Below, one piece after another: positions 19,938 through 39,100 of a DNA stretch of 64,000 nucleotides. A program made the position numbers and the translations under genes. Source of the stretch: Lophium mytilinum (taxonomy: Eukaryota); contig MU004181.1 of assembly GCA_010093605.1 (NCBI GenBank), positions 806,001 to 870,000 on the forward strand, given 5' to 3'. The notes under the pieces were generated by a model. It was not told the origin of the DNA, did no database searches, and saw nothing but the letters and a program-made list of their open reading frames with translations. The stretch's first letter is position 1; each line of letters starts with the position of its first letter.

Positions 19938-20861
19938 AAACTGCTGGTCGCATCTGGTATCTGTAAGTATATACCCACATAAAGCCTCGCGTCATGAGCG
20001 AGTTATCTGTAATCTTAGGGCGATTCCACTCAAACACATATGTACTCATATAGTCCATATCACGTGCCATTTTGTAATGGACTGCGGCCGACGCCCAGAA
20101 ATAGTCATGTCTCTGAACTGTCTTCCATCATTCCATTCATCACTATCCATCTCCTTCCAGCGTACTCACTCTCTAGTTGCTCTGCCTGATCGATAGGAGT
20201 GTTCTCAACCAGCACGTTTTCGCACACAAACGGGCTTCGTCGAAACGACAACAAACGCTTACAAGTGTCTCTCATAGGTTCAAACCCCTGTGTTGTTATG
20301 TCTCTAGCTACTTGTATGGTAAAGCTGCACTCACTAATCATGTTTTCTTTCATGTCCGAACAATGGCAGTATCCTAGACAGTATGCTACGCGGCTTCAAC
20401 CTTATGATGAGAGCGCCATGTTTGACGCATCGAGAATCGTCCAGTACGACCTCAAACTGTCACAATATTTCGTTTGTAACCCTTGATCAAGCTCATTTTC
20501 ATTATCACACAACCTCATATCTGGCTCTGTGGCTCAAACTATCGTCCCGCAAGTCTTTGCTCCGTTTGAGACCTGGCACCGTGCTCAGATTGCTGACTCC
20601 AGCTTTGTTAGTAACTTACATATCCCAAACGCCCAATGCGGTGTATATAGGGCAGTCATCAACAGTAAATTGAAAGTCCGTTTTTACTTCGTTTGTACGA
20701 CCGTCAAGACCCGTTTCTTTCGGCAGCTGAAATCTAGCATCGCGGGCTCTCTCAAGTTCAGATCAGGACTAAGCTGTCAGTATTTCAAGACCGTCCCCCA
20801 TTTCTTTGACCCACCTTCTAACTACTTGACAAGTAGGAAATACAGCCTCAGAACACCGCCA

Positions 20862-23800
20862 ATGGCCTATCGCGGAAATGGTCGGGGTGGTTCAGGGCCT
20901 CAGCCCTGTTATCAATGCGGCAACCTAGGCCACTTCGCTCGTGAGTGTCCACAGAATAGCCGGGGTTTTCAGGGTGGAGGTCGCGGTCAAGGTGATTCAG
21001 TGCGTGGTCTAGCTTCGCGGGGCGGATTCCCACCAGGATGGCGTGGACCATCTACAGATCGAGGTGGCAGAGGCGGTTACCAAAGCGGTTCTAACGGTCG
21101 AGGCCGTGGCGCTCCAAATGGGCCATACGGTCGGCCAGGTTCTGTCAATCATGGGGCCTCAACTGATATCCCCTTGCAGCAACGTCCACCATTGGAATTC
21201 CCTCAGACCCCAAGCACATGGGCCGAGAAAATTGCGAAGCTTGAGAAGATCGAACTAGACCAACTAGCCTCATTCGAGATACCCACGGCACCAACGGGTG
21301 GTACACGCTTACCGCCCAAAACATTCGTCTTATCCAACAATCTCCAGACTTCCCTAGCGAAGGTCAAACAAGAGATGCAGGAGAACGAAGAGAATTTTGC
21401 TGTACACACCATTCGGCCCTCGTTCGTCACCGCAGGGTCAGAGAGACAATCATCAATGTTGACGAATCACTTTCAAGTCACGCTCCCGACCAAAACGCTC
21501 TATGAGTACGCTATCCATGGATTTCCAGATGACAAGACCCGTAGGGCTAAGAAGCACATCGTCCTCGATATGATAAAAAGCTGTCCTCTTTTGCAAGAGG
21601 ATAACTTTGTTACTGACTTTGATGGCACAGTTGTCTCATGGGTCAAATTGCATGATCAAGAGCCTAAGAAAGATGAACACGTTAAAGGCAGCCACTGCCT
21701 CGTAGAGAGGAGACCTACCAACCTCGACATGAGCCTGCAATTCAAAGGCGAAGTCAAATTTGACGCCCTACTTCAACATACCAAGAGCAGCACCAATCCC
21801 GAGCATCTCAAACTTGACGCAAATCCAATAGTGAAGGCTTTGAACATGCTCATCGCTGACAAATCTTTCTCGTCTGCCGTCGGTCTTGAGACTGTGCAAG
21901 TGGGAGCAAACAGGTTCTTCCTCAAATCCGGAGCCAGGGCTCTCAAGGGCAGGAATGACAGCACCGAGAGTCCGCTGTGTACCATTCGAGGATACAGCTT
22001 GAGCACCAAACCCGCGATGGGCAGTACTCTGGTCAACATCAACACCGTTACCAGTGCGTTCTTTCGGCCGATTCTAGTCAGCGAGTTCATGATGAACTAC
22101 AGCAAAGTGCTTGCTAAGACAGACGCAGAGCTCTACGAGCTTCTTGTGGGACGTCGCGTCTATATTCTCTATGAGCGCGGCGACCCGAAACTTGATGCTC
22201 CTGAGGGTAGAGTGAGGACTATCCAGCGTGTTGGCAGAGACACACCCGGTGCAACCAAGTTTATAAAGAAAGGCACAACAGAAGAAATCACGGTTCAAAA
22301 GAACGTCGAAGAAAGTAAGCTTGTCTCCTTGCCACAACGTCCATAACTTACCTATACAGAGTCGATGAAGAAGCTTCAGCATCCCCATCTATACTGTGTC
22401 AATCTTGGGGGAAAGGACGAAAAGAAAGAGGCATGGTTCCCTCCGGAATCCCTTCGATTATTGCCCTACCAGCCGTACAATCGATTGCTTCCTGCCAACT
22501 TGACTTCGGCCATGTTGGACGCAGCATGCCGCAAGCCCGAGGAGAATCGGCACGCAATCATCGAAGAGGGCCTGCCCGCACTTGGAATTGACCCTAGTGG
22601 GGCTGCCTCCCCTGCTGGTGACGACAGTCTCTTCAAGGTCGATCCGGCCATGCTATCGGTACCCTCGCGTATCTTGGCCAAGCCAACGATACTATACACC
22701 GAACGACAGGCAACCCCTAGCGATAGTGCCCGGTGGAGCCTAGAAAGCCAAAGATTCCTGAAAACCACAGACGACGAGATCAAAATGCATGTCATCTTAG
22801 AGGGTGATAATCACAGGAACAAGCTCATCTACCACGAGGCGGAATACGTTGAAAAACTCATCGAAAGCTTGAGGAGTTACGGTCTGAAGGTGGTAGATGA
22901 TTACAAGGATACTTCGAAAAGCTGGCTTGGTTCTGGCAACTTCCTCGACAGCTTTCAACGTGAGCTTGACAAAGCAAAGAAAAACGGCTGCGACATTGTC
23001 TGCTTAGTTCTACGCAAAAAGAGCACCGATGTATACTCAGAGTTCAAAGTCATTGCGGACAGGGCGACGGGTGTGCACACGATCTGTCTGTGTGAGGATC
23101 GGTTGTTGAAGTTTGGCGGGGTGAAGAAAGATGTGATGGGACACCTCGCAAATGTCGCGATGAAGGTATGACTTTCTCCTCCATAAAGTGTCTTCTATGC
23201 TCTACTAAACCTATTAGGTCAATCTCAAATTTGGTGGCACCAATCATTCCGTGGCTGGCATCACGCCCTTTCTGAAGGATACCTTGGTACTCGGTGCAGA
23301 TGTCACACATCCCACAGGAGGCTCTGTCAATGGAACACCTTCTATTGCTGCAGTCGTTGGAAGCGTTGACGAAAATGGAGGCCGGATGTTAGGGTCCATG
23401 AGACTTCAACTTGAAGCAAGAAATGAAGTAAGTGCACCAGTCACCTCCGATTTATTGAAAGATTAGCAGACACTAATTCGTTGGGTACCAGATGATCGAC
23501 GAGATGGAATCGATGGTCAAAGACCGCCTCCATGCCTGGAAAGAGGCTAACGAGGGCAAGTGGCCACAGAACGTCCTGTACTATCGCGATGGTGTATCCG
23601 AATCCCAGTACTCGGCGGTCCGCAGAAAGGAGATCGGGGCAATTCGCGATGCTTTTGCAAACACCACTGACGTGAAGCCTCGCATCACGGCTGTGGTCGT
23701 AGCGAAGCGGCACGGAACTCGATTTTATCCCACTGACGATAAAGATCGAGTTCGTCATAATATGAACTGCCTTCCAGGAACGCTAGTAGAGAGCGGTGTC

Positions 23801-24295
23801 ACGTGAGTACACTTTACAATCCCAGAGAGTTTATCTGGGAGCAGCTATTGACGCGTACACAGGTCTCCGTATTACTTCGACTTCTACCTCCAAGCCCACA
23901 ACGGACTCCAGGGTACCGCAAGGCCTGCTCACTACTTCGTCCTCGAGAACGGCATGGATCTAAGCGCGAAGGACTTGCAGGATCTGGTAAACAGCCCCGA
24001 TCTCTACATCTCCCGATCTCCAATCATCTAACATCACACCCAGACATTCCGCCTCTGCTACACCTACGTCCGAGCCACCCTCGGCGTCTCGTACGCTCCC
24101 CCGGCTTACTACGCCGACCGGCTTTGCGAGCGCGGTCGCACGTATCTGAGAAACTACTTCAATGCGAAGCCACAGATGAGGGGCATGGACAAGGATACGA
24201 TTGATGCTGAGGCGAGAAGGTTGTGGGCTCGTGCGGGGAACAGTCGTGGTGATCCGTGGCATGAGAATCTTGACGATACGATGTTCTGGATGTGA
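20862..24295 (+). CDS. Argonaute A, with N-terminal CCHC zinc knuckle and RGG region (6 exons)
   Basis: N domain (TNHF), L1 (VGANRFF..RGYSLS..LVNIN), PAZ (WFPPE), MID (YSEFK..HTIC..NVAMK/VNLKFGGTNH), PIWI (GADVTHP, YYRDGVSE, KRHGTRFYP, GTARPAHY, YYADRLCER, TMFWM*). Introns at ~22315-22359, 23166-23217, 23428-23491, 23804-23862, 23987-24043. Confidence 0.95.
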
Positions 24296-25259
24296 AGGCG
24301 TTCGGGATGGCGTGTGGACGTGTTCTCGGCTAAAACGTGGGAAACTGGCAGCGTGGAGGAGAGGATGGAGGTTTGTTCTGATAATTTGGCCCATTTGAGG
24401 CTCTCGGAGGATGAGATGATTGAGGCGGCTCTGGGATAGAGATTTGTTTAATCCGGAGTCGAGTCTGATAGGTAATGGTGAAGAGGAGATCAAAGAGTGT
24501 ATAATTCAGAGGTCATGCTCGGATCCATAGCGTGGTAATTGTGCAAGCAATCATAGGTAATCTAGGTATGTGTTCAGGCTAAGCTACTCGTTTTCATTCA
24601 TACATTCACTCACTTCGCAATTGAATTCAAACAAGTTTCCAGCCCGTATAGTATACGGCTTTACTGACTGGTTGATGAGAAGCGCGCAATAGATTTCCTA
24701 GCGATTTCGACTGTAGGCAAAGAAGTGCTTTCGCGTTTTCAACGCAGCAAACGGAGCGCTTCGCCAGCTGACCCTGTATCAAACGACGCCCTGCCAGTAA
24801 GCCTCTTACGCCGCGGCCTTGTTGTCTGACGTCTTTCAACGTGTTTCCAAAGCGCATACCAACCGTGAGTTTCCTATCTTTACCCTAACGAATCAGATGC
24901 TAATGCGTGCAGGTAAATTTGCCTATAATGCGGGCTTGCTCCGAGCTTCACTAAGAAACACTTGAAGCAAGCCCCGTGTTTTTTCCACGGATTTCTGCTT
25001 TGCCTTCTCAAACATCACGTTTTTTTCCCGGTTGCGCCCAACAATCAAGCCTTGCTCTCCTAGAGAGTTTTCTGCATTGGCTCATCAAACGTCAAGCTCC
25101 AAGTCGGGCCTTTCGATATAAAGACACGAGCATTGAGCCGCTCGGAGTCTTTAGATTAGAACTTCGTCATCATTGAAAGCTCACCGACGGATTTGTTTTT
25201 GATTACCTTCATTCAAGACTCCACTCCCACAAGACATCGCTCACCCCAGATCGACTCCC

Positions 25260-28200
25260 ATGGCTCGGAAAAAAGGGATTGCCAAGCCCAACGATGACAA
25301 CTCAAGGTTGCTACGCGAAGGTATGAGGAAGACCTGGGATAAATCTCCATGCTTCAGGTGTAACAACGCGAGCCACCCTTCCAACCAATGCAGTGCAAAT
25401 GCCGATGCCACAACCTTCTTTGCCGAAAAGGACGGCGCCGTCGATACTGTCCACAAGAAAGAAGCAGATGAATGGTTCAAGACCTACGTTCTCAAGAATA
25501 AGGATGGGAAGTTTCCGCCGGAGGTAGCGCCCTCGATAAATACCCCAGCCGCTGCTGGTTTGTCTTCCACGTTACCGATTCGTGGATCCGGGAATGTTTC
25601 ACAGCAGACGTTCGGAGGAGCTTCTGCGAATGTATCAAGCCAGAGCCAGACACGTGTTCAGCAGCCCGATGAACCTCTTTTGTATGAGGAGTTTACCAAG
25701 GGGCGTTGGGAACGAGAAGATCCCATCACAAGGGGTGAAGGGCCGAAGGGTAATGAGCCATACGCAGGGGGAACTCATATTATCGAGCAGCCAAAGAACC
25801 CAAACAGAATAGGGGAAATCGTCAGAGTCATCGCGAATCACCTTCTCATTGAGAAGGTTCCAGAGTTGCTTAACGAGTATTCTATCGATTACAATCCGAC
25901 CAAAGGCCGCGTTGAAAAGCGAAGAATTTTCAATGCTTTGTTGGACTCGAAACTATTGGACCTGGACGGACTTGCTTGGGCCACTGATCATGAGAGACTG
26001 TGGATCAAAGATAAGACTCTTCCAAAAGAGTTAAAAGAGTTTTTGGATTTTCCATATACGAAGCCAAGCGGAAAGGAGGGAACAATGATCAGTGTGAACT
26101 TTAACTTCGACCGGGAAATCAAACCAAGAGACCTTCAAGATTCTGCAAAAAACGCCGAATTCCAGACGCAGACCACCACTATTCGAGCGCTGAATGCGAT
26201 CGTTTCTCGAAAGCTTGTTGAAGAGATGTTCACCAACAAGGACCAGCCAACTTTAAAGGGCATTACAATGACGAAAGCGAACAAATGTTTTATCAACAAT
26301 GGCATCAGCCCTCTCAAAGGAAGAGGCCTCGTTGCCGTTCGAGGATACTTCTTTTCCGTCCGGCCTGGAGAAAAGAATACTCTGCTGAACATCAATACCG
26401 CGACCTCTGCCTTCTTGTCGCCAATTCTGGTATCTCATTTCCTTCAATTGACCGGGAACAATAAAGCAGCAGCTGAAAAGCTTCTCAAAGGCGCGAAGCT
26501 CAGAGTGACTTACAACCGGATGGACAAGGCCGACGATTCTATCAAGGGTAGCCGGAACGATGAAGTGAACCGGGGAAAGATCTTTCGCCAGTTCGGTAAA
26601 GCGGCCCAAGATCAGGATTATTATATCGGAGAGAAGGGATCAAAGACACTAGGTGGGAAGGTCCTCGACTACTTCAAAGGTACGAATACGAAGACCGCTG
26701 TGCAAACCTGTCCTTGCAATTGGCTAATTCTGCTGGTTAGATTTGGGAGTGTCCGTAACCTCCGGATGTGCCTGTGTCAATGTTGGGCCTTTTTTTGATC
26801 CCGACGATAACGACGCAGCGAAAAACGCAGTCTGGGTTCCCGCTGAATGCCTCGAGATCCTACCAATGAACCCGGTCAAAACCACATTGGATACCGACCA
26901 TACTTCAGCAATGATGAACGTCGCAAATCGAGAGCCGGCAAAGAATGCCCGTCTGATTGTGAAAGAAGGCATCCGGCGCCTTGGAATCGACCAAAAGGAT
27001 GAACTAGTAAGTACAAGACCATTCACCTCAATCTCTGACTTGACTAAGCTTGAACACACATACTAACAAGCCGTAGGAAGACATCGGTTTCTCGATCCGT
27101 CCTGAACCTATCGAATTCGACGCTCGAATCCTTCCGCCGCCACAGTTATATTACAACGTCAACGGGCGCATCCGCTCGGTGGATCCCAAATTTGCAGCAT
27201 GGAATCTGAAGGGCGTCAGGTTCCAAGGGGCGGGGGTTGCAACAGCCTTGCACGTGGTGCACGTAAATGGTGGTCAAGAAAACCTTAAGCCATGCGAACC
27301 AGAGAGCCTCGGTCATTGGCTTCAAGAGAGTATGAAGGGACATGGAATGAAGATCCCTGGTACTTTCGACAAGAAAAAGGTGCATCACTTGTACGCTGAG
27401 GGCTCAACAAAATTCGCAAATTCTTTCCAGGATCTTTTGAGGTCTTTCGATGAGAAGGCTGTAACTTTGGTCATTCTACCTTCCCCAGATCAGCAACTCT
27501 ACAGCACGATAAAGCGCATAGGCGACACCAGTGGCGTTATAACTGTATGTTGCCAGAACGATAAGTACGACACGCAGACACTACGGGACAGGAAGCCATT
27601 GGGCAGACCGCCGCAAGACCCTAAAGATGCGCTGGAGCAACAACTCTCCAATCTCTCGCTCAAATTCAATCTCAAACTGGGGAAGGACACGCACCATTTT
27701 GACTCACATTTCATCAGAGACATGGATGGCACGATCATCATGGGCGCAGACGTCGGACACCCTCCTGTCGGAGGACCCGCGGCAAGCCCGTCTATCGCTG
27801 CGTTGGTCGCGAGCATCGACGGTAACATGATGAATTATCCAGCATCCATACGTCTGCAAGCGGGACGACAAGAGGTAAGCCTAAAGCTAGATTCTATGTT
27901 TCACATCGCTCACTATATTCAGACAATAGAAGATCTTCGCGGCATGGTCTCGGAGCGCCTCCGTGCTTGGAGAGAGAACAACAATAATAGCCTCCCTGAC
28001 CAAATCGTGTTCGTAAGTTAGCTCGACCAGGTTTTTATTCAAGATGATCTCTTACATTGACATCAGTTCCGAGATGGTGTGGCCGAAAATCAATTTGCAG
28101 ATATCAAGGAGAGAGAGGTAAAGGCCATCAAAATGGCTTACGATGATCTGAACGTCTCGAACCAGGCATATGCCGTCACATTCATCGTAGTCGGCAAGCG

Positions 28201-28848
28201 GCATCATACTCGGTTTTATCCCAAGCACTCAACAGACGCGACAAAAAATGGAAACTTGAGGCCAGGTCTCGTGGTTGATTCTGTTGTCACGACGCCAGGC
28301 CAGCAGGATTTCTTTTGTCAGGCACATGCAGCTATAAAAGGTACGGCTAGGTCCGCTCACTATCATATACTAGTGGATGAGATAAATTGGACCTTCGATG
28401 TCCATCAAGAAGTTGTAAGATACCGCGATTTCTTGTTCAATCTCCATGAATCTAACACCGTCAGGCCCACAAACTCTCCTATGCCTTTTCCCGCGCAACT
28501 AAAGGTGTCTCGTATTGCGCTCCTGCGTACCTTGCGGATCGTCTCTGCGAGCGCGGCCGTTGTTATTTGAGAGCATGGAAGCCGGGACCATCCTACGACA
28601 TACCCAAGCACAAGGAGCTCATTGACTGGTACAACAATGTCAAGCGGCAAGATCCAAAGCCAATGGGCAGGACTGTGAAGACAGGCGCCAAAGGAGAGGA
28701 ATTCCCAATCCTTACAAAAGTGGGGATGCAAACGTGGAGGAAAGAAATGGCTGCTCGATTAGCTAGGAGCACTGATTGGAATCCGAATGGAGCAGCCAGA
28801 ACGAATCCTTGGGACGCAAAGTTTGATAAAGTCATGTTCTGGATCTAA
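25260..28848 (+). CDS. Argonaute B, with N-terminal CCHC knuckle (6 exons)
   Basis: ANHL, RGYFFSVRPG..LLNINTA, VWVPAECL, LYSTIKRIGD..ITVCC, GADVGHP, F/FRDGVAE, KRHHTRFYP, GTARSAHY, AYLADRLCER, NPW..VMFWI*. Introns at ~26680-26740, 27007-27076, 27875-27922, 28013-28065, 28415-28464. Confidence 0.95.
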
Positions 28849-29214
28849 CGGAGCTGGGAATTGGCGCTGAGCATCGTTCACCACCTATTCAACTAGGTGT
28901 GCCCAGGAGAGGATCGGGGTCCTCCATGTATCAGTCGAGTTTGGTTGGAGGTTCTGATGTGACAGTGACACAAGAGACCAATGTAGGGCATTTGGTCCTT
29001 TTGTAGCTTGCTGAAGGTTCAGCACCGCATGATAGTAGCTAGATGTTGGAGAAGCGATAATTACGTTGGTGTTCATGTTTTGAACTCTTCTCTCACAAAA
29101 CTCTTCGTACTCTAGACATGTGCACGAGTAGTACATTATGCTCACGGGACATAGGTTTGCATGCAAGCTATGTCGGACATTTCCTGCCGAGTTTGGCTCT
29201 CCTGAAGCATCACA

Positions 29215-29406
29215 GTTTGCACTTATTGCCGAGCTACGGTCGGAATTTCATACGCTTCGCCATCGTACTACGCTGACAGGCATTGTGAACGGGGTAAGGC
29301 ATATCTGAGGAGGTGGTTAGTTCAGGGTGAACTGGGACAGCTACCTGCAAATGCTGATATCGACATGTCGATAGACGCGCATGCACGGGGAATGTTTGGA
29401 ACCTGA
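29215..29406 (+). pseudogene. Isolated Argonaute PIWI C-terminal fragment
   Basis: Translates as VCTYCRATVGISYASPSYYADRHCERGKAYLRRW..FGT*; in-frame TGA at 29203 just upstream; no upstream exons recognisable. Confidence 0.85.
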
Positions 29407-30350
29407 ATAGATATCGGTATCAAATTCTCTTCCTTGAAGAATTCAGACCTTAGTAGCAACGTTGAATCGCTGGGTGCCCTCATGTGACGTAATACTTTCT
29501 AGCTCTAGCGATCCCGCACAGACTCCGACTCCCACGTCCCCACGTCCCCTATCCCGCTCCATCCCGACATTTTACACTTAATTCTTTCAGCCTCAGACCC
29601 CTTGACTTTGGGATTCTGGGTTAGCACTCATTATTTATTCGATCGATGAAGTATTCTAGTTCACGTGCTGCTAACAATTCCAGCCAACGCCCAAGAATAT
29701 GTTATTTCTGCAAGATAATTCGCCAGACACGTTCAAATTGCCTCAAGACCCAGTCATCGACTACTCGGAATTGCTATACCACCACAGATTTGATTCCTCT
29801 TGATTGGAGCAAGAGTGTGTCGAGCCTTTGCTAATGGCTCGCAAAAGGTTTTCGATCAAGGGGGGAGGGGGCAAATTCCTCGTACGCCAAAGCTTTTCGC
29901 ACGCAGCGAACTGTATAACGAGCCTGAAGCATATTTGGTATCCGGTTTGACAGATGGGAACTCCGAGAGGGCTCTTCCAATGCCAAATACACTGTGACCT
30001 CTCTCGCAACCGTTTGACGCTCAAGCGCGCCCTTCCAGAGGCGCTGCTGTTTTCTTCGACCCAAATAGACTACGAAACTGTCAAGCCCATTGCCTGTGAA
30101 TTGCGAAAAGAAAATCAGGTTGCTTGCTCGGTTTGTACATCTTGTCTAGCTCTTTCGATCAATCACCTGGACATGTGGTAGGCAACTGGGGCAGCTACGT
30201 TGATGGCTATATAACAGAGCATTCTTTCATCTTAAATGCTCCTCATCACGCTCGCCCTTTTCAGCGAAACTAGCTCATCAAAGCCAGCCTTCTTTCAATT
30301 TCTCAGCTTTCTTCGACTAGTCGAGCTTCTACCAGTATTTCCTCCTCAAT

Positions 30351-33300
30351 ATGGGAAAGAACAAGGGGGGTAAGGGGGGTAACCAGCGAGGTGGTTCTCA
30401 AAATGCCGCAGTAAATCTTTCAGACTATTTTGGAACCCGAGATAGGTTCGAAAAGAAGCTTCCAGGTCTTCAAAAACTCTTCGATCCTTCGAATTGCGAG
30501 ATTCATGTCGTTCGGCCTTCCTTCAACCGGCCGGTCCAGAACGAGCGTCACGCTGTCTATTCCAACCATTTCCAGGTCACTCTTCCCAAAGAGCAGCTCT
30601 ACCAGTACCACGTTGTTGGAATGGATCCGCCGCCCCCCGAGAAGAAGGACCAATCGAAGGAAGAAGAGCCACCAAACGATGGAAGCGACTCTGAGCAGCA
30701 GGGTGCATCAAAAGAAGAAGAATCACCAGCCGCTGGAAGTAACTCTGAGCAGCAGGGTGCGTCGACAGAAGACAAATCACCAAAAGAAGAAAGTGACTCT
30801 GAGCAGCAGGTTGCGTCAGAGGAACCTGAAGAGGAGTCCCTCTCCCGACGAGCCAAGAGACTTCTCCTAGACTCATTCATCAAGAAGTCCCCTGTTCTAA
30901 CGGCAGAGAAAGCTAATTTCGCAACGGACGACATGTCAGTCATCGTTGCCTGGAAGGACTTATCCGCAATCTATCAGAAAGATTCCGCAGAGGAGACCAT
31001 CCTGGAAGAACACGACGTCAAGCTCGGGTCGTCAAGCAAAGCACATACTTACAAGCTTCAGCTGAAGTTTATCGGTGAAGTCGATACGAAGTCGTTTCAA
31101 AAGATCTGTGCCGGAGATGTTTCGAAATTGCCATACGAGTTGTCGACGAAGAACACCGTTCCACACGCTCTCAATATCATCATATCACACGCAACGAGGA
31201 ATAACAAGGACCAGAGAGCCGAGAATTTCTCGGTAGGCGGGAAGAAGTGCTATCAAGTGAACACGAGGAAGCCATCGCATGGTCTAGAAATCTACAGCGG
31301 GTTCTTCTCCACGATCAAGACTTCAATGGGCACACCGTTGCTCAACGTGAACAGGACCACAGGCCTTTTCCTGCCGGGGAACAAGCGAGTCGACACCTTT
31401 GCGGCGGAGTACAAGGCTGGATGGCAGAAGGCACTCATCGGCACGAGGGTGGCTGTTCTTTATCAAAAGGTGAAAAAGGCAGAAGAAATTGCTAGACTTC
31501 ACCCTTCGAATCAGAATCTCTTCAAGGAGCGAACCATCAAAGGATTCGGCTTAATACCGTCAAAACAGACGTTCACGATGATTGACGCAGACAAAAATGA
31601 GACAGTTACATCTGTCAGGAAGTACCTGAAGGATAGTAAGTTTTCATCACTCACGAGTTAGGAAGAATGGCATTGACCAAGAACAGGGTACGAAATTGAT
31701 TTCACCGACAACCTTCCGTGCGTAGACTTAGGCTCGGGAAAGAAAGACGACCACGCCTGGTTTCCCGCTGATAAACTCGAGATTCTCCCATACCAGCCTT
31801 TTCGACTAGCCGCTCCACCCGATGTTACGTCTGACATGATAGCGCATGCACGCAAAAGCCCCGCTGAGAGTTGCATAGAGATCCTCGACAGTAAACTCAC
31901 ATTCCTGGGACTCCAAAATCGGAGTGACGGTACATCTCCTGTAAGCATATTAATCAATGTTCTGTTGTGTGCAGCATCTCACGAGATCAAGGTACCCGCC
32001 GACTTCGCCATAAAACCAGACATGGTCGCGATCCCCGTCAAGGTAATGAATGCGCCCAAGGTAACCTATGTTGATGCCAAAGGCCAGGAGAGCAAAGCCG
32101 CCGTCGAAGTAGGCGCATGGAATCTGAGCAATCAGAATCTTCTTTCCCCAGGCCGTCTCCGAGGCGACGTTTGGGTTGTCCATTCAAGCCCGGTTGATGC
32201 AGGTCAAGCCCAAAATTGGGGCAAAGCACTCTTCACAGAAATGAAGATTTACAAGATCAAAGTCCCAGCAGACACCAGAATCAGAACTATTGAGCTGCCT
32301 GATCTCAAGCGCAGTAACTTCGACGATGCGTTCAAACAAATACCTCAAGGGTCGCTGGTCATCTATCTAAACCCCGATAACAAAGCTCAACACGCTTCGA
32401 AGTTTGCGTATTCGAAGCAATGTGGAGATCAGACCTACGGACTGCAGACGATATGTCTCACTGCGGACAAAATGACAAAACTGGACAGCGGCGAGAGCAA
32501 AGCCAAATTCAAGGACTATATGGCCAACGCCATATTGAAAATCAACCTCAAGCTAGGAGGTTACAATCATAAAGTTGAACTGATAGGGTTCAATGCCAAT
32601 GGTCAGAATAAGAATTGGATGAAAGAGAGAAACAAGCTTGAGACCATGATCCTGGGCGCGGATGTTACCCATACAGGTCCTAAAGCTACGCCTAAGACCC
32701 CCTCTCTTGCCTCAGTTGTCGGCAGCGTCGAAGGTGACTTCGGGACGTACGGGGGGTCAATGAGGGCGCAAAGAGCCAACTCTGAGGTAAGTTTGAACCA
32801 AACATACTTGGGCCAAGTCGATTCTAAGTTTTAAACTAGCTTATTGCGGACTTCAAAGGAATGGTGATCGAGAGACTCCAAGCCTGGAGTAAGAGAAACG
32901 AGAACCGTTGGCCAAGCCAGATCCTCTATTACAGAGACGGCGTCGACGAAGGACAGTATTCCCAGGTTCGCAAAGAGGAGGTAGAAAAGATCAAGGATGC
33001 ATTCGCGGAATGCATCGAGCTTGATAAGAAGGAGCGCGAAATGAAGGAGGGCAAAGAGAAGAAGGGTAAAGGGAAGAAAGGCAAAGAGGAGACACCCGAA
33101 CCACCTAAGGTCACAGCCGTCATTGTCGCAAAGCGACATCATACACGCTTCTATCCTACGCAGGTCATGAATAAGGGTACCGGAGGGAATTGTGAACCAG
33201 GCACTGTTATCGATGTCGGGGTGACTGACCCCGTTTACTTCGACTTTTGTGAGTTCTTCTTCAGCGCCTCGCTTCAGTCCTACTTCACTACCCTTAGAAT

Positions 33301-33734
33301 GTAGTAAACTAACCTTCTTCACAGTCCTTCAGAGCCACGATGCAATTCAAGGGACCGCAAAGCCTTCGCATTACTTCGTCCTCAAGAACGAAATCGACCT
33401 GACAGCGGAACAACTACAGGAATTCGTAAGTTGATCTTCCTCGTACCCCGAGTAGCTCCCTAGTTCGAGACGCAATGCTCACCCAGTAACTTTAATCAAG
33501 ACATATCGCCTCTGTTACACGTATGTGAGAGCCACGAGAAGCGTATCATATGCGCCGCCTGCTTACTACGCTGATCGTCTTTGTGAGCGAGGCCGTAGTT
33601 ACTGCAAGGACTTCCTCGACGGAACTTATCGAAAGACGAGCAAGCAGTCGACAGACCACGCATGGAAAGAGGCATGGGGCCCCAACAAAAACCCTTGGCA
33701 CAAAAACCTCGACGATACTATGTTCTGGATGTAG
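30351..33734 (+). CDS. Argonaute C, with acidic repeat insertion and Lys/Glu-rich PIWI insertion (about 6 exons)
   Basis: YSNHFQV, GFFSTIK..LLNVN, AWFPAD, QTICL..NAILKINLKLGGYNH, GADVTH, YYRDGVDE, KRHHTRFYP, GTAKPSHY, YYADRLCER, NPWHKNLDDTMFWM*. Introns at ~31636-31686, 31941-31991, 32787-32839, 33249-33324, 33427-33500. Confidence 0.95.
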
Positions 33735-34562: not shown

Positions 34563-36188
34563 ATGGAAGCCATTAGCAATGTCACCAGTGCTGCGAGCAA
34601 GCTTATCTGGGGGGAGGGCGAGCAGGCCCAGGAGCGTACCGCTACAAACGAGACTGGCGGTTCAGAACCCGTCTCAGGCGAGCAGGGCAAGGGCACTGTG
34701 AGCGAGCCGTTCGACAAAGGCAACGAAGGTAAGTTCGAGCACTCAAACGTGACTGCCCCGCATTCCATCCACGGATATCGCTGCGGGGCGTACCACATGA
34801 GAAAAGAACACGGTTACGAGCAATTGGCTAATTGAGATGTCTACAGAAAACCCTATCTCCGGTTAGTAATATCCAGCTTTTTTGAGTTGTGAGCCCATCC
34901 CGAGCTACGCCGGCATCACCACCGCCTTTTGGATTCGAAGCGACGTCCCCAATGAGACCCCCATAGAAGGCACAAACGGTCTCTTGAGCAGGAGAGGATC
35001 TATAGAACGCCTCCCCAAAGCGCTCCCTCCCTCTCCAAACAACACCCGTCGATCCGAAGTCAACATTCCATTATTCTACCCACTTCGAACGACATTGTCC
35101 CACCCTCACCATGCCGTTCTTCCACCAAACCGAACGACGACTACGCAACAGCACCTCTCCCCTGGTTGACCGTACCCGTCCGCGGCTCGACCTCCTCATC
35201 CACGACAACTTCCACGAGTATACCGACTGTGACGGTTACTTTCATCTCAACATCTCCTCTCAACCCATCACTAACAGCTTCCGTGCCTTAGGCGAGCCCA
35301 CCCCCTCAACATCAACCTCAAACCCCACTTCCGGTCCTGATTCCACCTCCGCTACAACCAGCGAGATTCCGATCCGAGCGCACGAGACCTCCAAGACTGG
35401 CGACTTGTCCACTCCCTCTACGTCCACCTCAACCACTACTCCTGGCCCTAATCCCACCTCCGCCGCTGCCGGCGGTGTCCCGCACCCCGAGCATGAGACC
35501 TCCAAGACCGGTGTTGTAGGCAGCATGGGCTCTGACCCCAAGGGCAGCGACGTACGGCCCTCCGAGTCCACCGCCCACACCGGTCCCCCCGAAGCCGGCG
35601 CCGCCCCTACTCAGAAGCAGCAGGGTGCCGCGAACCCAACCGACGAGCCAGAGAAGGGCGAGTCGAAGTCGAAGTCGACCCTGAACATCGACGACATCGA
35701 CGGCGAGGAGGCGCTGAAGAAGAAGGACCCGAACGACCACTCGGGCGAGCCGATGCACATGCACGGTGGCGACGGAGCTGGCAGCGAGGAGAAGAAGGCG
35801 ACGAAGGCCGAGGAGAGGCGGGAGAGCAAGGCAGGGCAAGCGGGCGGACAGGAGCTTGGGAAGGAGGAGCATGGGACTGGGGAGCAGTGGGTGAAGGTAC
35901 GTTATCCCTTAACCCCTACAGCCGCCGATGTACGACATCCAGCTAACACGATACCAGACCTCCGGCCTCCACGCCGAAGGCGGCGACTTCGATGCCACCA
36001 AGCCAGGCGCCGGCCGCGAAGCCGACCGTCTGATGGAGCAGAAGGGCATCCACAAGACCAAGCCCGGCGAGGTTGCGAAGGACGACGCCTCGACCGCCTC
36101 CCCGACTCCCTCGAGCAGCAAGGAGAAGGTCAGCGTGGCCGACAAGATCAAGAACAAGCTGCACATTGGCCACAAGGACAAGCCGTAG
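34563..36188 (+). CDS. Hydrophilic conserved fungal hypothetical protein (multi-exon, probable 15-nt micro-exon)
   Basis: MEAISNVTSAASKLIWG..EPVSGEQGKGTVSEPFDKGN; candidate micro-exon 34847-34861; large exon from ~35292; final exon TSGLHAEGGDFDATKPGAGREADRL..KIKNKLH. Confidence 0.75.
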
Positions 36189-39100
36189 ATGGCGACCCTT
36201 GGCGGCCTACTTCACATACCCATACCCATACCCATGCTTTTCCTATTCTGGCGCTGTGTTAGTACGATTACGAGACCCGGGTGATTGGCAGAGCTGCGAA
36301 TCCGACAGGGAAATCATGACGGCGGCGACGGCCTAGCGTGGGTTTTCTTCTCTTTTCTCATGAATTACCTCTGTACAATTAGTTTCTTACTTCGATAATG
36401 AAGCTATGGTTAAATGATCAGTGCTATCTTGTGTATACACCTGGCGTCTTCAGGACCCTTGCCATGACCAGAGCTGTATTGCCTTGAATGTTGGAAGTTT
36501 CGTTTATCTTCTTTGGAGTCCTCGCAGATTGACTACCTTCATGATGGAGATCTACTGGTCTTTGTTTCATTCAAAAGCTCGAGAGTTGAGGCTAGGTACC
36601 AGGAATTTTACCCGTGACTTGAAATTATCTCACGTGCGCGCTTAGTAACCACCCCCCTCCGACGCCTATAAAAGCCTCTCCGGCTCTGCTTTGTTTTTTC
36701 TCTTCGTGGGAGATCAAGTTTTGGGTCGGAACAACATCGCCTTCTGTAATAATTAATGGTGTCGGGTCGGTTGGGTCTGAATTTGAAAGTCCCAATGCGA
36801 AGATCGCATGGGAATCGAGCATTGGTGGTCTGAGTTCAAAACCTTCAGACGCACCGCATGATGTGGAGGATTCGGGGTGGGGGTCTGTAAAACGTGACTG
36901 CGCATCCTTTAATGTGGTGGAGCTGTCGCGGGGGTGGAGTAAAAATCACCACACAGATAACTGATGGGAAGAAGGGTGTGCTCGGGGAGGAGTTTCAGTG
37001 GATGTGGTGATGGAGGTCAATGGATTGGCTCAACGGAGGTAAGTATTGTCTTAAGAGACGTTGACTATACTGGGTTTCTTACAGTGTCGATGATGTGTCA
37101 GGGGCAAACTGGAAATTGAGCCAATCCGTAAGTGGTAGTGTTGATATTCAGCACCATCCGGCAGTGATGGCAATCAAATCTCACCGCAAGGCCACCAAAA
37201 CACCAGTTCCGCACCCAGCTCCATGTCTAGTTGCTGCCTTTTTTGATCCCATCCAAAACACCGAGACCGGCTCCAACTCCATCGCATTCTTTCACATATT
37301 TCGTTGATCTCCCCCCGAAATCCCACAAACTCCACCGACTCCATGTGGTCTACAAATCCTCAATTTTGATCCAACCCGACGAACAACCACCCCATCGGGT
37401 TGTAGTCAACTTGATTTTGATCGCCCTCCATTCAATCTCGCTCTCTGGGGTTTTGCTCCACCCCCGTCTCCATGCAAGACCATGAAAAACCCATCTGCCC
37501 CCTTCGAGCGAAAGATTTTATACCCCTTCTCGAACGCCCGTCACGTGGATCCACACCGTTCACCTGACGCAAAGCGAAAACGGAACTCAATGCGAAGACT
37601 CTGGACTCATTCATGACCGAGGTCCGGGATAGACCACGTGCAACCAACGTGACCCAGCTCCCGCGACGGTATAAAACCTTCTGACTCTGCTTTTGATTCT
37701 CAGTATGGAGGAGGGGGAGTTGGGGGATCAAAAGACGGGGAGAACCAGTCCAATGGCTCTGCTTGTGCAAACACCGGTCACTAAGAGCATTCATGTTGGT
37801 GGTGTGGCGGGAGATGAAAATAAGTCATGGAGTGGTTCGATGGTTGGAGTGTGGTTGCCGGGTGTGCAACAGTAGGCAAAGAGCGAAAGAATGTTGGGGT
37901 CGCGGTGGGGGATCAACTGTGATATGCCTCGGACCATACAGTGTTTGCGAGTGCGGTCCGTGGGGGGAAGCGATGGTGGTGTGCTTCAGGTTGGTTCGTT
38001 GATGCTGTTTGGTGGGGAAGGTTATTGCGAGAGATTGGTGTTGAATCGGAGAATAGTGAGTGTTTAGAAAGAGGACGTCCTACGCAGCTTCGATCAGGGA
38101 CCGAGATATTGATCATCATTATGAATTCTGATGGCCCCACCTCCCCCCAATCACTTCCTCTCCATGTATGAAAAGTGTTGTCCGAGTGTGTTCGGGCCCC
38201 TCTCCAGATCTCCCATCAGGCGAGAACTACGCGTGTTTTACACACTCCCACCATTGGGGGTTGTCGAATTCCCATTTGAAAGCCTGAATCCCACCCCAAG
38301 TCCACCACGCTCCATGTACGGAATGGCATATCGATTTTGATAAGTCTCCCACAAGACAAGCACAAGCCCATAAAATGTTTGAGATTAAGGGTTGCATCGC
38401 ATACCCAAGAAACTGACCGACCTCTGACTAAAGGAAAGAGTCCAGTGATGAGGAAGCTTTTATACCCTCAGAAGGAAGAACTTTAGTCTAGCACGTGATA
38501 CAGCTGATAAGCACATGCCACTAATTCACCTGCCCGTGTTCTCACATGCAGAGGAGAAACAAGCATCTAGCTAGTATATCGAAGACATGTGACGAAGCTT
38601 TGGCAAACAGATGTTTTGAGAAGACAATAGAATAGTGGTAGAACATTAAATCTGCTCGCGCACGTTGCGTAATCTATGTATCCCCTTTATCTTGTGTATA
38701 CCATACCATCTAATCCGTCGGGTCGATAATCGATATCTTCAATCACCCTCATTCTCAGAGAAAGATAGAAGCAATCGACAGTAGGTACCAGCTACATAAG
38801 AGACCAAACATCATTAGTTCCTAAACTCCTTCGCAATGAAATAAGGACAACTGGGTAGGGATATCTGATACAAAGATAGGAAGTAGCAAAGAAAGGGAAA
38901 CTGTGTCCCTTGAGGAAGATCGTCAAGGAAAGTCGTGAAATTTATATACAAGAGGTCTGGGTTTCGTTGAAATATTGGGATAGGAATGTTAGGCGAGTTG
39001 ACTCCGTTGAAGGAAGAGTGGCAGTCCGAACCCGTCTAGGGTATCCTAGACGGCTATCATGCATTCTCAATTAAAGGTATTCAGGTCTTTGGAGAGGGCT

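Follow-up and report, generated by a model that had tools for sequence, protein, structure and literature searches.

Three complete Argonaute genes (g1, g2 and g3) were identified head to tail on the + strand between positions 20862 and 33734 of the window, i.e. the whole 64,000-nucleotide stretch of Lophium mytilinum DNA that was analysed. The locus is probably an ancestral tandem of Argonaute paralogues, predicted to be slicers, that has been retained in this member of the Dothideomycetes (Mytilinidiales). It does not represent a new kind of system: the three proteins are ordinary-looking Argonautes which are already annotated in GenBank as the consecutive Piwi-domain proteins KAF2502246, KAF2502247 and KAF2502248. 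Its members are placed in two old Dothideomycete-wide subclades, g2 in one and g1 and g3 in the other.

Argonaute pieces were recognised by translation of the stop-to-stop open reading frames of the + strand from 20487 to 33734. Gene models were drawn from GT..AG candidates and then fixed by spliced contigs, which gave a complete six-exon model with Pfam Argonaute domains for each gene (Table 1). The start codon of g1 and the stop codon of g3 coincide exactly with the limits of the array given in a preliminary description of this DNA. The same description had announced three full-length, same-strand Argonautes about 1–1.5 kb apart and lying between housekeeping genes. This was confirmed throughout, with spacers measured at 964 and 1502 bp, a mitochondrial carrier gene upstream of the array, and KTI12 and other genes downstream. 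The 114 flanking ORFs of at least 110 aa showed no Dicer, RdRP or transposon domain, and a protein homology search with exon 1 of g1 as query returned the self match only. The models of g1 and g3 are identical to the database proteins P0001 and P0062, respectively. The GenBank model of g2 (P0211, 1025 aa) ends in an incorrect C-terminus, its last intron (28415–28464) having been left unspliced, and the public gene model is hereby corrected at this end.

Table 1. Coordinates of the three Argonaute genes and of associated features in the window
Feature	Position	Strand	Description
g1	20862..24295	+	Argonaute, 6 exons, 1051 aa, GenBank KAF2502246
g1 exons	20862..22314, 22360..23165, 23218..23427, 23492..23802, 23863..23986, 24044..24295	+	Spliced contig
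g1 CCHC zinc knuckle	20907..20948	+	aa 16-29, CX2CX4HX4C; regex and Pfam zf-CCHC (1.7e-6)
g1-g2 spacer	24296..25259	.	964 bp between coding regions
g2	25260..28848	+	Argonaute, 6 exons, 1101 aa, GenBank KAF2502247 (differing model)
g2 exons	25260..26679, 26741..27006, 27077..27874, 27923..28012, 28067..28414, 28465..28848	+	Spliced contig
g2 knuckle-like CX2CX4HX4C motif	25350..25391	+	aa 31-44; regex; without Pfam zf-CCHC call
g2-g3 spacer	28849..30350	.	1502 bp between coding regions
g3	30351..33734	+	Argonaute, 6 exons, 1025 aa, GenBank KAF2502248
g3 exons	30351..31635, 31687..31940, 31992..32786, 32840..33248, 33325..33425, 33501..33734	+	Spliced contig
g3 54-nt x3.1 tandem repeat, exon 1	30653..30818	+	TRF score 199, 79% matches

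Splicing was examined in a public run (X1), labelled RNA by guess, whose contigs report the presence of spliced copies and not expression level or stage. Three separate contigs skipped all 15 introns (15/15) at GT..AG, with no other letters or indels. The 3455-nt contig of g1 starts at 20834, skips five introns and ends near 24566, as computed from its length. That of g2 (3911 nt, 24913–29106) displays five joints, including those from 27874 to 27923 and from 28414 to 28465. The 4157-nt contig of g3 starts at 29564 with a leader of about 787 nt and contains five joints as well. The end of the g1 contig and the start of the g2 contig both lie within the g1–g2 spacer, while the g2 contig ends and the g3 contig starts within the g2–g3 spacer; contig ends do not by themselves prove transcript ends. 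The three genes are read as separate transcription units with correctly spliced mRNAs for full-length proteins. The earlier statement that all three copies are intact therefore stands, as no copy was found to be unexpressed or mis-spliced and all frames are open.

Pfam analysis called ArgoN, ArgoL1 and Piwi in all three proteins, with Piwi E-values of 3e-74 (g1), 1.6e-64 (g2) and 2.3e-66 (g3). ArgoL2 was called in g1 and g2 in the per-gene listing, and in all three blocks in the overall Pfam result. All three share the N-L1-PAZ-L2-MID-PIWI architecture, in which PAZ is weak and under the Pfam cut-off in g1 (E=7e-4) and g3 (E=4.6e-4) and without a Pfam call in g2. Among solved structures, human AGO2/AGO3 come closest, scoring 267 bits with g1, 211 with g3 and 193 with g2, and the alignment to these full-length proteins covers residues 185–1003 of g1, 221–986 of g3 and 346–972 of g2. 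The roles of the residues of the catalytic Asp-Glu-Asp-His/Asp tetrad are known from human AGO2, and the corresponding columns were taken here from the alignment. DEDH was found in g1, g2 and g3, as in 65 of the 78 alignment rows, while the Pleosporales sisters of g3 display DEDY and not DEDH. The 5'-phosphate pocket of MID is characterised by Tyr-x3-Lys and by two lysines in LK.N.KLGG. When aligned with a fish AGO and the QDE-2 orthologue, all three proteins display the K..K motif, and g1 and g2 also Y-x3-K; g3 has either F-x3-K or a Tyr shifted by one residue (elsewhere given as two). The C-terminal tails are conserved (...DDTMFWM in g1 and g3, ...FDKVMFWI in g2), that of g2 becoming visible only once the last intron is removed, as in the spliced contig. 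With the DEDH tetrad, the lysines of the MID pocket and the intact tail all kept, each protein has what is required for holding a small RNA with a 5'-phosphate and for cutting a complementary RNA, and the three putative small-RNA-guided slicers are most likely functional.

The N-terminal modules differ from one gene to the next, as the preliminary description had noticed. A Gly/Arg-rich stretch accompanies the CCHC knuckle of g1, and g2 carries the knuckle-like motif of Table 1. In g3, which is without knuckle, the tandem repeat of exon 1 accounts for a Ser/Glu-rich, acidic insert within the N domain, and the ArgoN match stretches over residues 68–278 for a profile of 142 positions; its PIWI domain carries a Lys-rich insert. 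A division of labour, i.e. a putative subfunctionalisation, among the three proteins can reasonably be inferred.

The paralogues are deeply diverged, again as described earlier. Pairwise protein identity amounts to 32.6% (g1/g2), 33.2% (g1/g3) and 29.3% (g2/g3) over 933–965 aligned columns. At the nucleotide level, blastn gave no match for g1/g2 and g2/g3, and for g1/g3 only three short ones of 40–97 nt. Three intron positions are nevertheless common to all three genes together with their phases (columns 561–563 in phase 1, 944 in phase 0 and 1115 in phase 0), and a fourth position is common to g2 and g3. These introns are read as the likely signature of a duplication at the DNA level.

The relationships of the three proteins were analysed in two trees. 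A FastTree phylogeny contained 237 rows, from which 78 were hand-picked and aligned with FFT-NS-i (MAFFT) for an IQ-TREE phylogeny, so the clade sizes of the latter have no meaning. P0002 and P0040 apart, the larger tree left out proteins below 750 aa; it also left out those above 1500 aa and P0211, which was replaced by our own g2 model, then 1117 aa long as it still translated one in-frame intron. Supports are SH-aLRT values from quick trees. All three proteins belong to a Dothideomycete-centred clade of 158 rows (clade X), and the QDE-2 orthologue P0205 to clade Y, with a support of 97–99 for the split. Both trees placed g2 in one Dothideomycete-wide subclade of clade X (C), and g1 and g3 in the other (AB). 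Within these, the sisters of g2 were from Pyrenophora and Clohesyomyces (SH-aLRT 98/96) and those of g3 from Paraconiothyrium and Lophiostoma (98/98); the sister supports of both stayed at 96–98 under LG+G4 and under the default mixture model. Together with its Mytilinidion counterpart, g1 grouped with 19 Pleosporales rows, the direct join being weak (7/22). A single clade of g1, P0002, g2 and g3 was rejected (delta lnL 246, AU p=1.03e-24), and a sister pair of g1 and g3 was not rejected (AU p=0.151). The branch of g3 is long (0.77–0.99), and neither g2 nor g3 has a relative above about 33–37% identity in either search. In Mytilinidion resinicola, the closest relative, only the g1 orthologue (P0002, 612 aa, 79% identical) and one clade-Y protein (P0163) were recovered; no g3 orthologue was found among proteins of 563–1794 aa, and a g2 orthologue could hide inside a 50% cluster.

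Linkage in other Dothideomycetes was judged from the order of accession numbers. This is only a proxy for gene order, validated by the match between KAF2502246–KAF2502248 and the adjacency in the window. Teratosphaeria destructans has its AB member (KAH9842270) and its C member (KAH9842269) next to each other in accession order on a single contig of 73.9 kb. In five Phyllosticta species, the AB member lies 6 accession numbers away from the C member in every assembly listing both (the citrichinensis, citricarpa, paracitricarpa, citriasiana and citribraziliensis-cluster assemblies). The distance is 138–148 accession numbers in P. capitalensis and 272 locus tags, on one contig, in Elasticomyces elasticus; the Tothia and Lophiostoma paralogues are on different contigs. 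The database names of the T. destructans and Phyllosticta members go no further than Piwi-domain, 'argonaute-3' or RNase H-like protein. Since AB and C are adjacent in T. destructans and near each other in Phyllosticta, the Lophium array looks like a retained ancestral tandem. The AB/C pair would have arisen by tandem duplication at the DNA level before the Dothideomycete orders split. It would then have stayed adjacent in Lophium and T. destructans and within a short distance in Phyllosticta, and come apart in other lineages, with g2 as the putative representative of the old C subclade and g1 and g3 as those of AB. The age and the mode of this duplication are inferred. The preliminary description had named, as a case that would refute its proposal, separate ancient clades already known to be syntenic. 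That case largely obtains: g2 on one side and g1/g3 on the other belong to separate old clades, and linkage between the two occurs in other orders too; this linkage was not found in print. A search of an open-access library brought up no paper about linked or tandem Argonautes in ascomycetes and none about fungal zinc-knuckle Argonautes.

The earlier proposal was a lineage-specific expansion. In this reading, tandem duplication within the Mytilinidiales would have been followed by very fast divergence, for instance in an arms race with viruses or transposons. The adjacency of the genes on one strand, their three common intron positions and the AU value for g1 and g3 as sisters are compatible with it, and the low identity of g2 and g3 to any relative fits a fast evolution. 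It is nevertheless improbable. Rejection of a clade of all three already refutes it for g2, which belongs to the other old subclade, and g2 and g3 each have well-supported Pleosporales sisters of their own under two models. In addition, Mycosphaerellales and Botryosphaeriales have AB and C members side by side or nearly so. Long-branch attraction could exaggerate the placement of g3, but it is no explanation for that of g2. In an even less likely scenario, only one copy would be functional, the others decaying or acting as regulatory, slicer-independent paralogues. The features of g3 (acidic repeat in the N domain, Lys-rich insert in PIWI, shifted or substituted MID Tyr, sisters with DEDY) and the missing PAZ call of g2 would suit such a scenario, but the open six-exon frames, the spliced contigs, DEDH and the conserved tail are common to all three, each of which aligns at about 190–270 bits to full-length human AGO structures from N or L1 to PIWI.

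The shared C-terminal motifs had also been described as SMS-2-like, and the array could accordingly be an expanded effector of MSUD acting mainly in the sexual phase. That impression is the only point in favour of this possibility, which is about as unlikely as that of a single functional copy. As stated, the motif argument is not supported: ADRLCERGR and the ...MFW[MILV] tail are common to the entire 158-row Dothideomycete-centred clade, the other clade ending in ...TM[FY]Y[IL]. No SMS-2 sequence is present among the rows, and none of the labelled Sordariomycete (0/17) or Eurotiomycete (0/11) rows fell within clade X. Clade Y contains at least two groups of Sordariomycete rows, the QDE-2 orthologues (P0205) being one and P0157 another, and the group of P0157 would be the likelier home of SMS-2-type genes. 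Against the N. crassa QDE-2 chain 2yhb_A, the Sordariales orthologue P0205 scored 492 bits, P0157 362, g1 226 and g3 166, while g2 gave no match at E<=1e-40. All three genes were present as spliced contigs in the sole run found, which does not tell the growth stage.

Retention of an old tandem is the preferred explanation. The locus points to an old tandem duplication as the source of the extra Argonautes in Dothideomycetes, a class rich in crop pathogens, the products of this duplication being still linked in at least three orders. A broader proposal, doubtful at present, is that clade X constitutes a third old Argonaute lineage of filamentous ascomycetes beside the QDE-2 and SMS-2 types, born in tandem, equipped with a knuckle surface and serving a pathway of its own. 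Its marks may be the ...MFW tail, ADRLCERGR and an ancestral N-terminal CCHC knuckle, and Lophium may keep the ancestral array most completely. An N-terminal CCHC knuckle was detected in 28 of the 158 rows of clade X versus 1 of 75 in the other clade; the former count is likely too low because many gene models probably start downstream of the true N-terminus. If this broader proposal is true, the knuckle would offer a second, guide-independent surface for RNA or partners, and the silencing pathway served would be neither quelling nor MSUD. For fungal RNAi, the value of the locus is evolutionary more than mechanistic. It draws attention to the zinc knuckle as a recurring feature of the Dothideomycete-centred clade, and within its compact 13 kb all three paralogues could be removed one by one or at once to probe the function of the clade.

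Compared with known Argonautes, g1–g3 share with QDE-2 (PDB 2yhb, 2yha, 2xdy) the eukaryotic AGO-clade affiliation and a MID-PIWI unit. The DEDH column pattern is also that of the QDE-2 orthologue P0205, as is a V/I in place of the MID Gln of animal AGO. They differ from this orthologue in the tail (...MFW[MI] versus ...TMYYI) and in the motif preceding it (ADRLCERGR versus ADLVATRAR), and they lie outside the QDE-2 orthologue group (clade X versus clade Y). Zymoseptoria tritici is, like Lophium, a Dothideomycete with several Argonautes, though without a sequence in the present trees. One report lists four, Ago1–Ago4, all with PIWI (PMC8303167), and the funRNA paper gives 1–7 per Pezizomycotina genome and 4 in Z. 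tritici (PMC4290597). Three to four or more copies are ordinary in Dothideomycetes. In Phytophthora, an Argonaute expansion with tandem copies is reported in another filamentous microbe (PMC6284064, with 'tandem' occurring 10 times). Phytophthora species are oomycetes, a lineage unrelated to Lophium, and their expansion is independent. A further parallel is offered by the AB/C pairs of T. destructans and Phyllosticta, whose members fall into the two subclades seen here, that of g2 (C) and that of g1/g3 (AB), but which are pairs where Lophium has a triplet.

Long stop-to-stop ORFs were found in three blocks of the + strand (20.5-33.8 kb of the window), and Pfam analysis of the translated blocks identified ArgoN, ArgoL1, ArgoL2 and Piwi, with a zf-CCHC knuckle opening the first block. 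Gene models were built from enumerated GT..AG introns joining frames without stops; the addition of two short in-frame introns gave six exons for each gene (g1, g2 and g3). The coding regions are separated by 964 bp (g1-g2) and 1502 bp (g2-g3), and the span of the preliminary description (20862-33734) runs exactly from the first ATG of g1 to the last stop of g3. In the public records of Lophium mytilinum (Dothideomycetes, Pleosporomycetidae, Mytilinidiales), the genes carry the consecutive accessions KAF2502246, KAF2502247 and KAF2502248, each named 'Piwi-domain-containing protein'. The g1 and g3 proteins modelled here are identical to the public ones, exon 1 of g1 being 100% identical to the L. 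mytilinum match. Public g2 (KAF2502247, P0211) is different: its last intron was left unspliced, so that the protein closes with about 50 unrelated residues and misses the conserved Argonaute tail.

Splicing was examined in one public sequencing run (X1), whose RNA label is a guess and whose contigs do not tell expression level, strand, the real transcript ends or the stage of growth. In three separate contigs, otherwise identical to the window, 15/15 introns were skipped at GT..AG. Each of the three genes is therefore represented by a spliced copy with an open frame, and the C-terminus of g2 is settled, since the 50-nt intron kept in the public model is skipped. Models, Pfam and X1 contigs together confirmed that the three Argonautes initially recognised are real, intact and spliced. 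None of the listed X1 contigs bridges two of the genes, which agrees with separate transcription units but does not prove them. The contig over g3 begins about 787 nt 5' of the ATG and displays no joint inside that segment (29564-30350); it represents either a long unspliced g3 leader or an overlapping upstream transcript, which the contigs cannot separate.

Features of the Argonaute array and its surroundings (window coordinates)
Feature	Position	Strand	Remark
g1 Argonaute, six exons	20862-24295	+	1051 aa
g2 Argonaute, six exons	25260-28848	+	1101 aa
g3 Argonaute, six exons	30351-33734	+	1025 aa
X1 contig over g1	from 20834		3455 nt
X1 contig over g2	24913-29106		3911 nt
X1 contig over g3	from 29564		4157 nt
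g2 intron	27875-27922	+	skipped in X1 contig
g2 last intron, 50 nt	28415-28464	+	removed in X1 spliced contig
g3 in-frame tandem repeat, 54 nt x3.1	30653-30818	+	acidic insert, N domain
g3 in-frame tandem repeat, 15 nt x3.3	33043-33092	+	Lys/Glu-rich insert, PIWI
ORF, 541 aa	1650-3272	+	no Pfam match at E<=1e-4
ORF, 659 aa	7080-9056	+	no Pfam match at E<=1e-4
ORF, 418 aa, directly 3' of array	35006-36259	+	no Pfam match at E<=1e-4
KilA-N + ankyrin ORF, 852 aa	61163-63718	+	resembles APSES/Swi6-type transcription factors

Each protein can be aligned to the solved structures of full-length human AGO2/3 over a span from N or L1 to PIWI. For PAZ, Pfam gave a weak signal in g1 and g3 and no call in g2. 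In the alignment, the catalytic columns of all three proteins read Asp-Glu-Asp-His, residues whose roles are described for human AGO2, and the C-terminal tails are conserved. The lysines of the MID pocket are kept in g1-g3 and Tyr-x3-Lys in g1 and g2; at the Tyr position g3 shows Phe, or a Tyr displaced by two residues. With these features, g1, g2 and g3 are very probably functional slicer Argonautes. Among the 78 aligned rows, the tetrad variants DEDY and DEDR occur in 4/78 and 3/78, respectively. The nearest relatives of g3, P0079 (Paraconiothyrium brasiliense) and P0133 (Lophiostoma macrostomum), display DEDY, g3 itself being DEDH.

The g1, g2 and g3 proteins share 29-33% pairwise identity and their DNA is essentially unalignable. 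Three intron positions are nevertheless common to all of them in the same phase, and a fourth to g2 and g3, as expected from DNA-level duplication of an intron-bearing gene. Relatives were collected with full-length g1 (best 120 of 269 matches, E<=1e-10), full-length g3 (best 120 of 131 matches) and g2 exon 1 against cluster representatives (best 150 of 312 matches, E<=0.001). FastTree (237 rows, 876 columns) and two quick IQ-TREE trees of 78 hand-picked rows (746 columns; LG+G4 and default mixture model, with SH-aLRT supports) concurred on two major clades, X (158 rows) and Y (75 rows). Every row labelled as Sordariomycete (17), Eurotiomycete (11) or Teloschistales (13) lies in clade Y, which includes the Sordariales QDE-2 orthologue P0205 (492 bits to PDB 2yhb_A) and also one Mytilinidion protein (P0163). 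Clade X consists of Dothideomycete-labelled and unlabelled rows, together with Sclerophora and Pleopsidium rows that originate from lichen metagenomes. Among the fungal clade-Y rows, beside Cercospora zeae-maydis, lies P0097, an 'argonaute mel1' filed under Quercus suber, probably a fungal contamination of a plant record. Extra Pfam domains (PF06985, PF01264, PF11917) occur in three Argonaute models, P0149 (Paraconiothyrium, 1710 aa), P0153 (Geoglossum, 1417 aa) and P0192 (Ophidiomyces, 1285 aa), which may be genuine fusions or the product of neighbouring genes merged in annotation.

All three Lophium genes fall within clade X, which divides into subclades AB and C. In subclade C, the sisters of g2 are Pyrenophora tritici-repentis and Clohesyomyces aquaticus (SH-aLRT 98 and 96). 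In subclade AB, the partners of g3 are proteins of Paraconiothyrium and Lophiostoma (98 and 98). There, g1 forms a pair with its orthologue from Mytilinidion (100), and 19 Pleosporales rows group with g1 through a weak direct join (7 and 22). The lineage-specific burst suggested in the preliminary description was not borne out: forcing all Lophium and Mytilinidion rows together cost 246 lnL units and was rejected (AU p=1.03e-24), and the genes appear as old paralogues of a Dothideomycete-centred clade. From its position in subclade C and the rejected single clade, the split of g2 is judged to be certainly older than the orders of the class. Forcing g1, its orthologue and g3 together cost 26.5 lnL units and was not rejected (AU p=0.151). 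The separation of g1 from g3 was probably earlier than that of Mytilinidiales from Pleosporales, an age that is not secure because g3 has a long branch and the supports are SH-aLRT values of quick trees.

The C-terminal motifs, previously considered to resemble those of the meiotic-silencing Argonaute SMS-2, are real, and the alignment showed them to mark all of clade X (VSY..PAY[YLI]ADRLCERGR; tail W..LDD.MFW[MILV]). Clade Y carries VSIC.PAYYAD[LI], and its tail TM[FY]Y[IL], present in the QDE-2 orthologue, differs from the MFW[MILV] tail of clade X, g1-g3 included. Since the Sordariomycete rows split into two or more groups within clade Y (P0205 with 492 and P0157 with 362 bits to QDE-2) and none occurs in clade X, we infer that SMS-2-type genes belong in clade Y. 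Among the relatives collected, which included no SMS-2 sequence, nothing ties g1-g3 to SMS-2.

The N-terminus of g1 combines a Gly/Arg-rich stretch with a CCHC knuckle (aa 16-29), that of g2 contains a CX2CX4HX4C motif (aa 31-44) without Pfam call, and g3 has no such knuckle. When CX2CX4HX4C was counted inside the first 260 residues of each tree row, it was present in 11/55 C and 17/103 AB rows (28/158 for clade X) versus 1/75 in clade Y. The clade-X proteins with this zinc knuckle carry one to three copies of it (e.g. P0010, P0025, P0033, P0133, P0221, P0247, P0252). This frequency is likely an undercount, as many public models probably lack true N-termini.

Gene order elsewhere was read from accession order, a proxy validated by the consecutive accessions of the three adjacent Lophium genes. 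In Teratosphaeria destructans (Mycosphaerellales), AB and C members have consecutive accessions on one 73.9-kb contig. In five Phyllosticta species the difference is exactly 6 in every assembly listing both, and in P. capitalensis members lie 138-148 accessions apart. In Elasticomyces elasticus they are 272 locus tags apart on the same contig, and, among the matches listed, pairs of AB-type paralogues share a contig in several Pleosporales at a distance of 18-160 tags. The adjacency looks ancestral, and the simplest reading would be an ancestral AB-C tandem loosened to differing degrees across taxa. Lophium would have kept this tandem tight, with a second AB-type copy on the far side of the C gene.

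The surroundings were surveyed with Pfam on 114 flanking ORFs of at least 110 aa. The genes recognised are ordinary ones. Upstream neighbours are phosphomannose isomerase, SGF29, an Arf-like GTPase, GT8 and a mitochondrial carrier; on the downstream side are KTI12, a Zn2Cys6 factor, a CDC14-like phosphatase, ADH, GNAT, a LYR protein and a KilA-N/ankyrin factor. Domains of Dicer, RdRP or transposons were absent from these ORFs, thus the locus is not a wider 'silencing island'.

Multiple Argonautes per genome are normal for Dothideomycetes. Zymoseptoria tritici has four (PMC8303167) and Pezizomycotina have 1-7 per genome according to funRNA (PMC4290597). A Verticillium study divides ascomycete Argonautes into two groups and 'outgroups' from species with at least three, including Z. 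tritici (PMC6572790), which is consistent with an extra Argonaute clade. Neither linked Argonautes in ascomycetes nor zinc-knuckle Argonautes in fungi were found described in the open-access literature searched; tandem Argonautes are reported for Phytophthora (PMC6284064). The Lophium array, already annotated, is a tidy case of a known family, and its novelty is a modest evolutionary angle, namely the conserved linkage and the knuckle-bearing clade.
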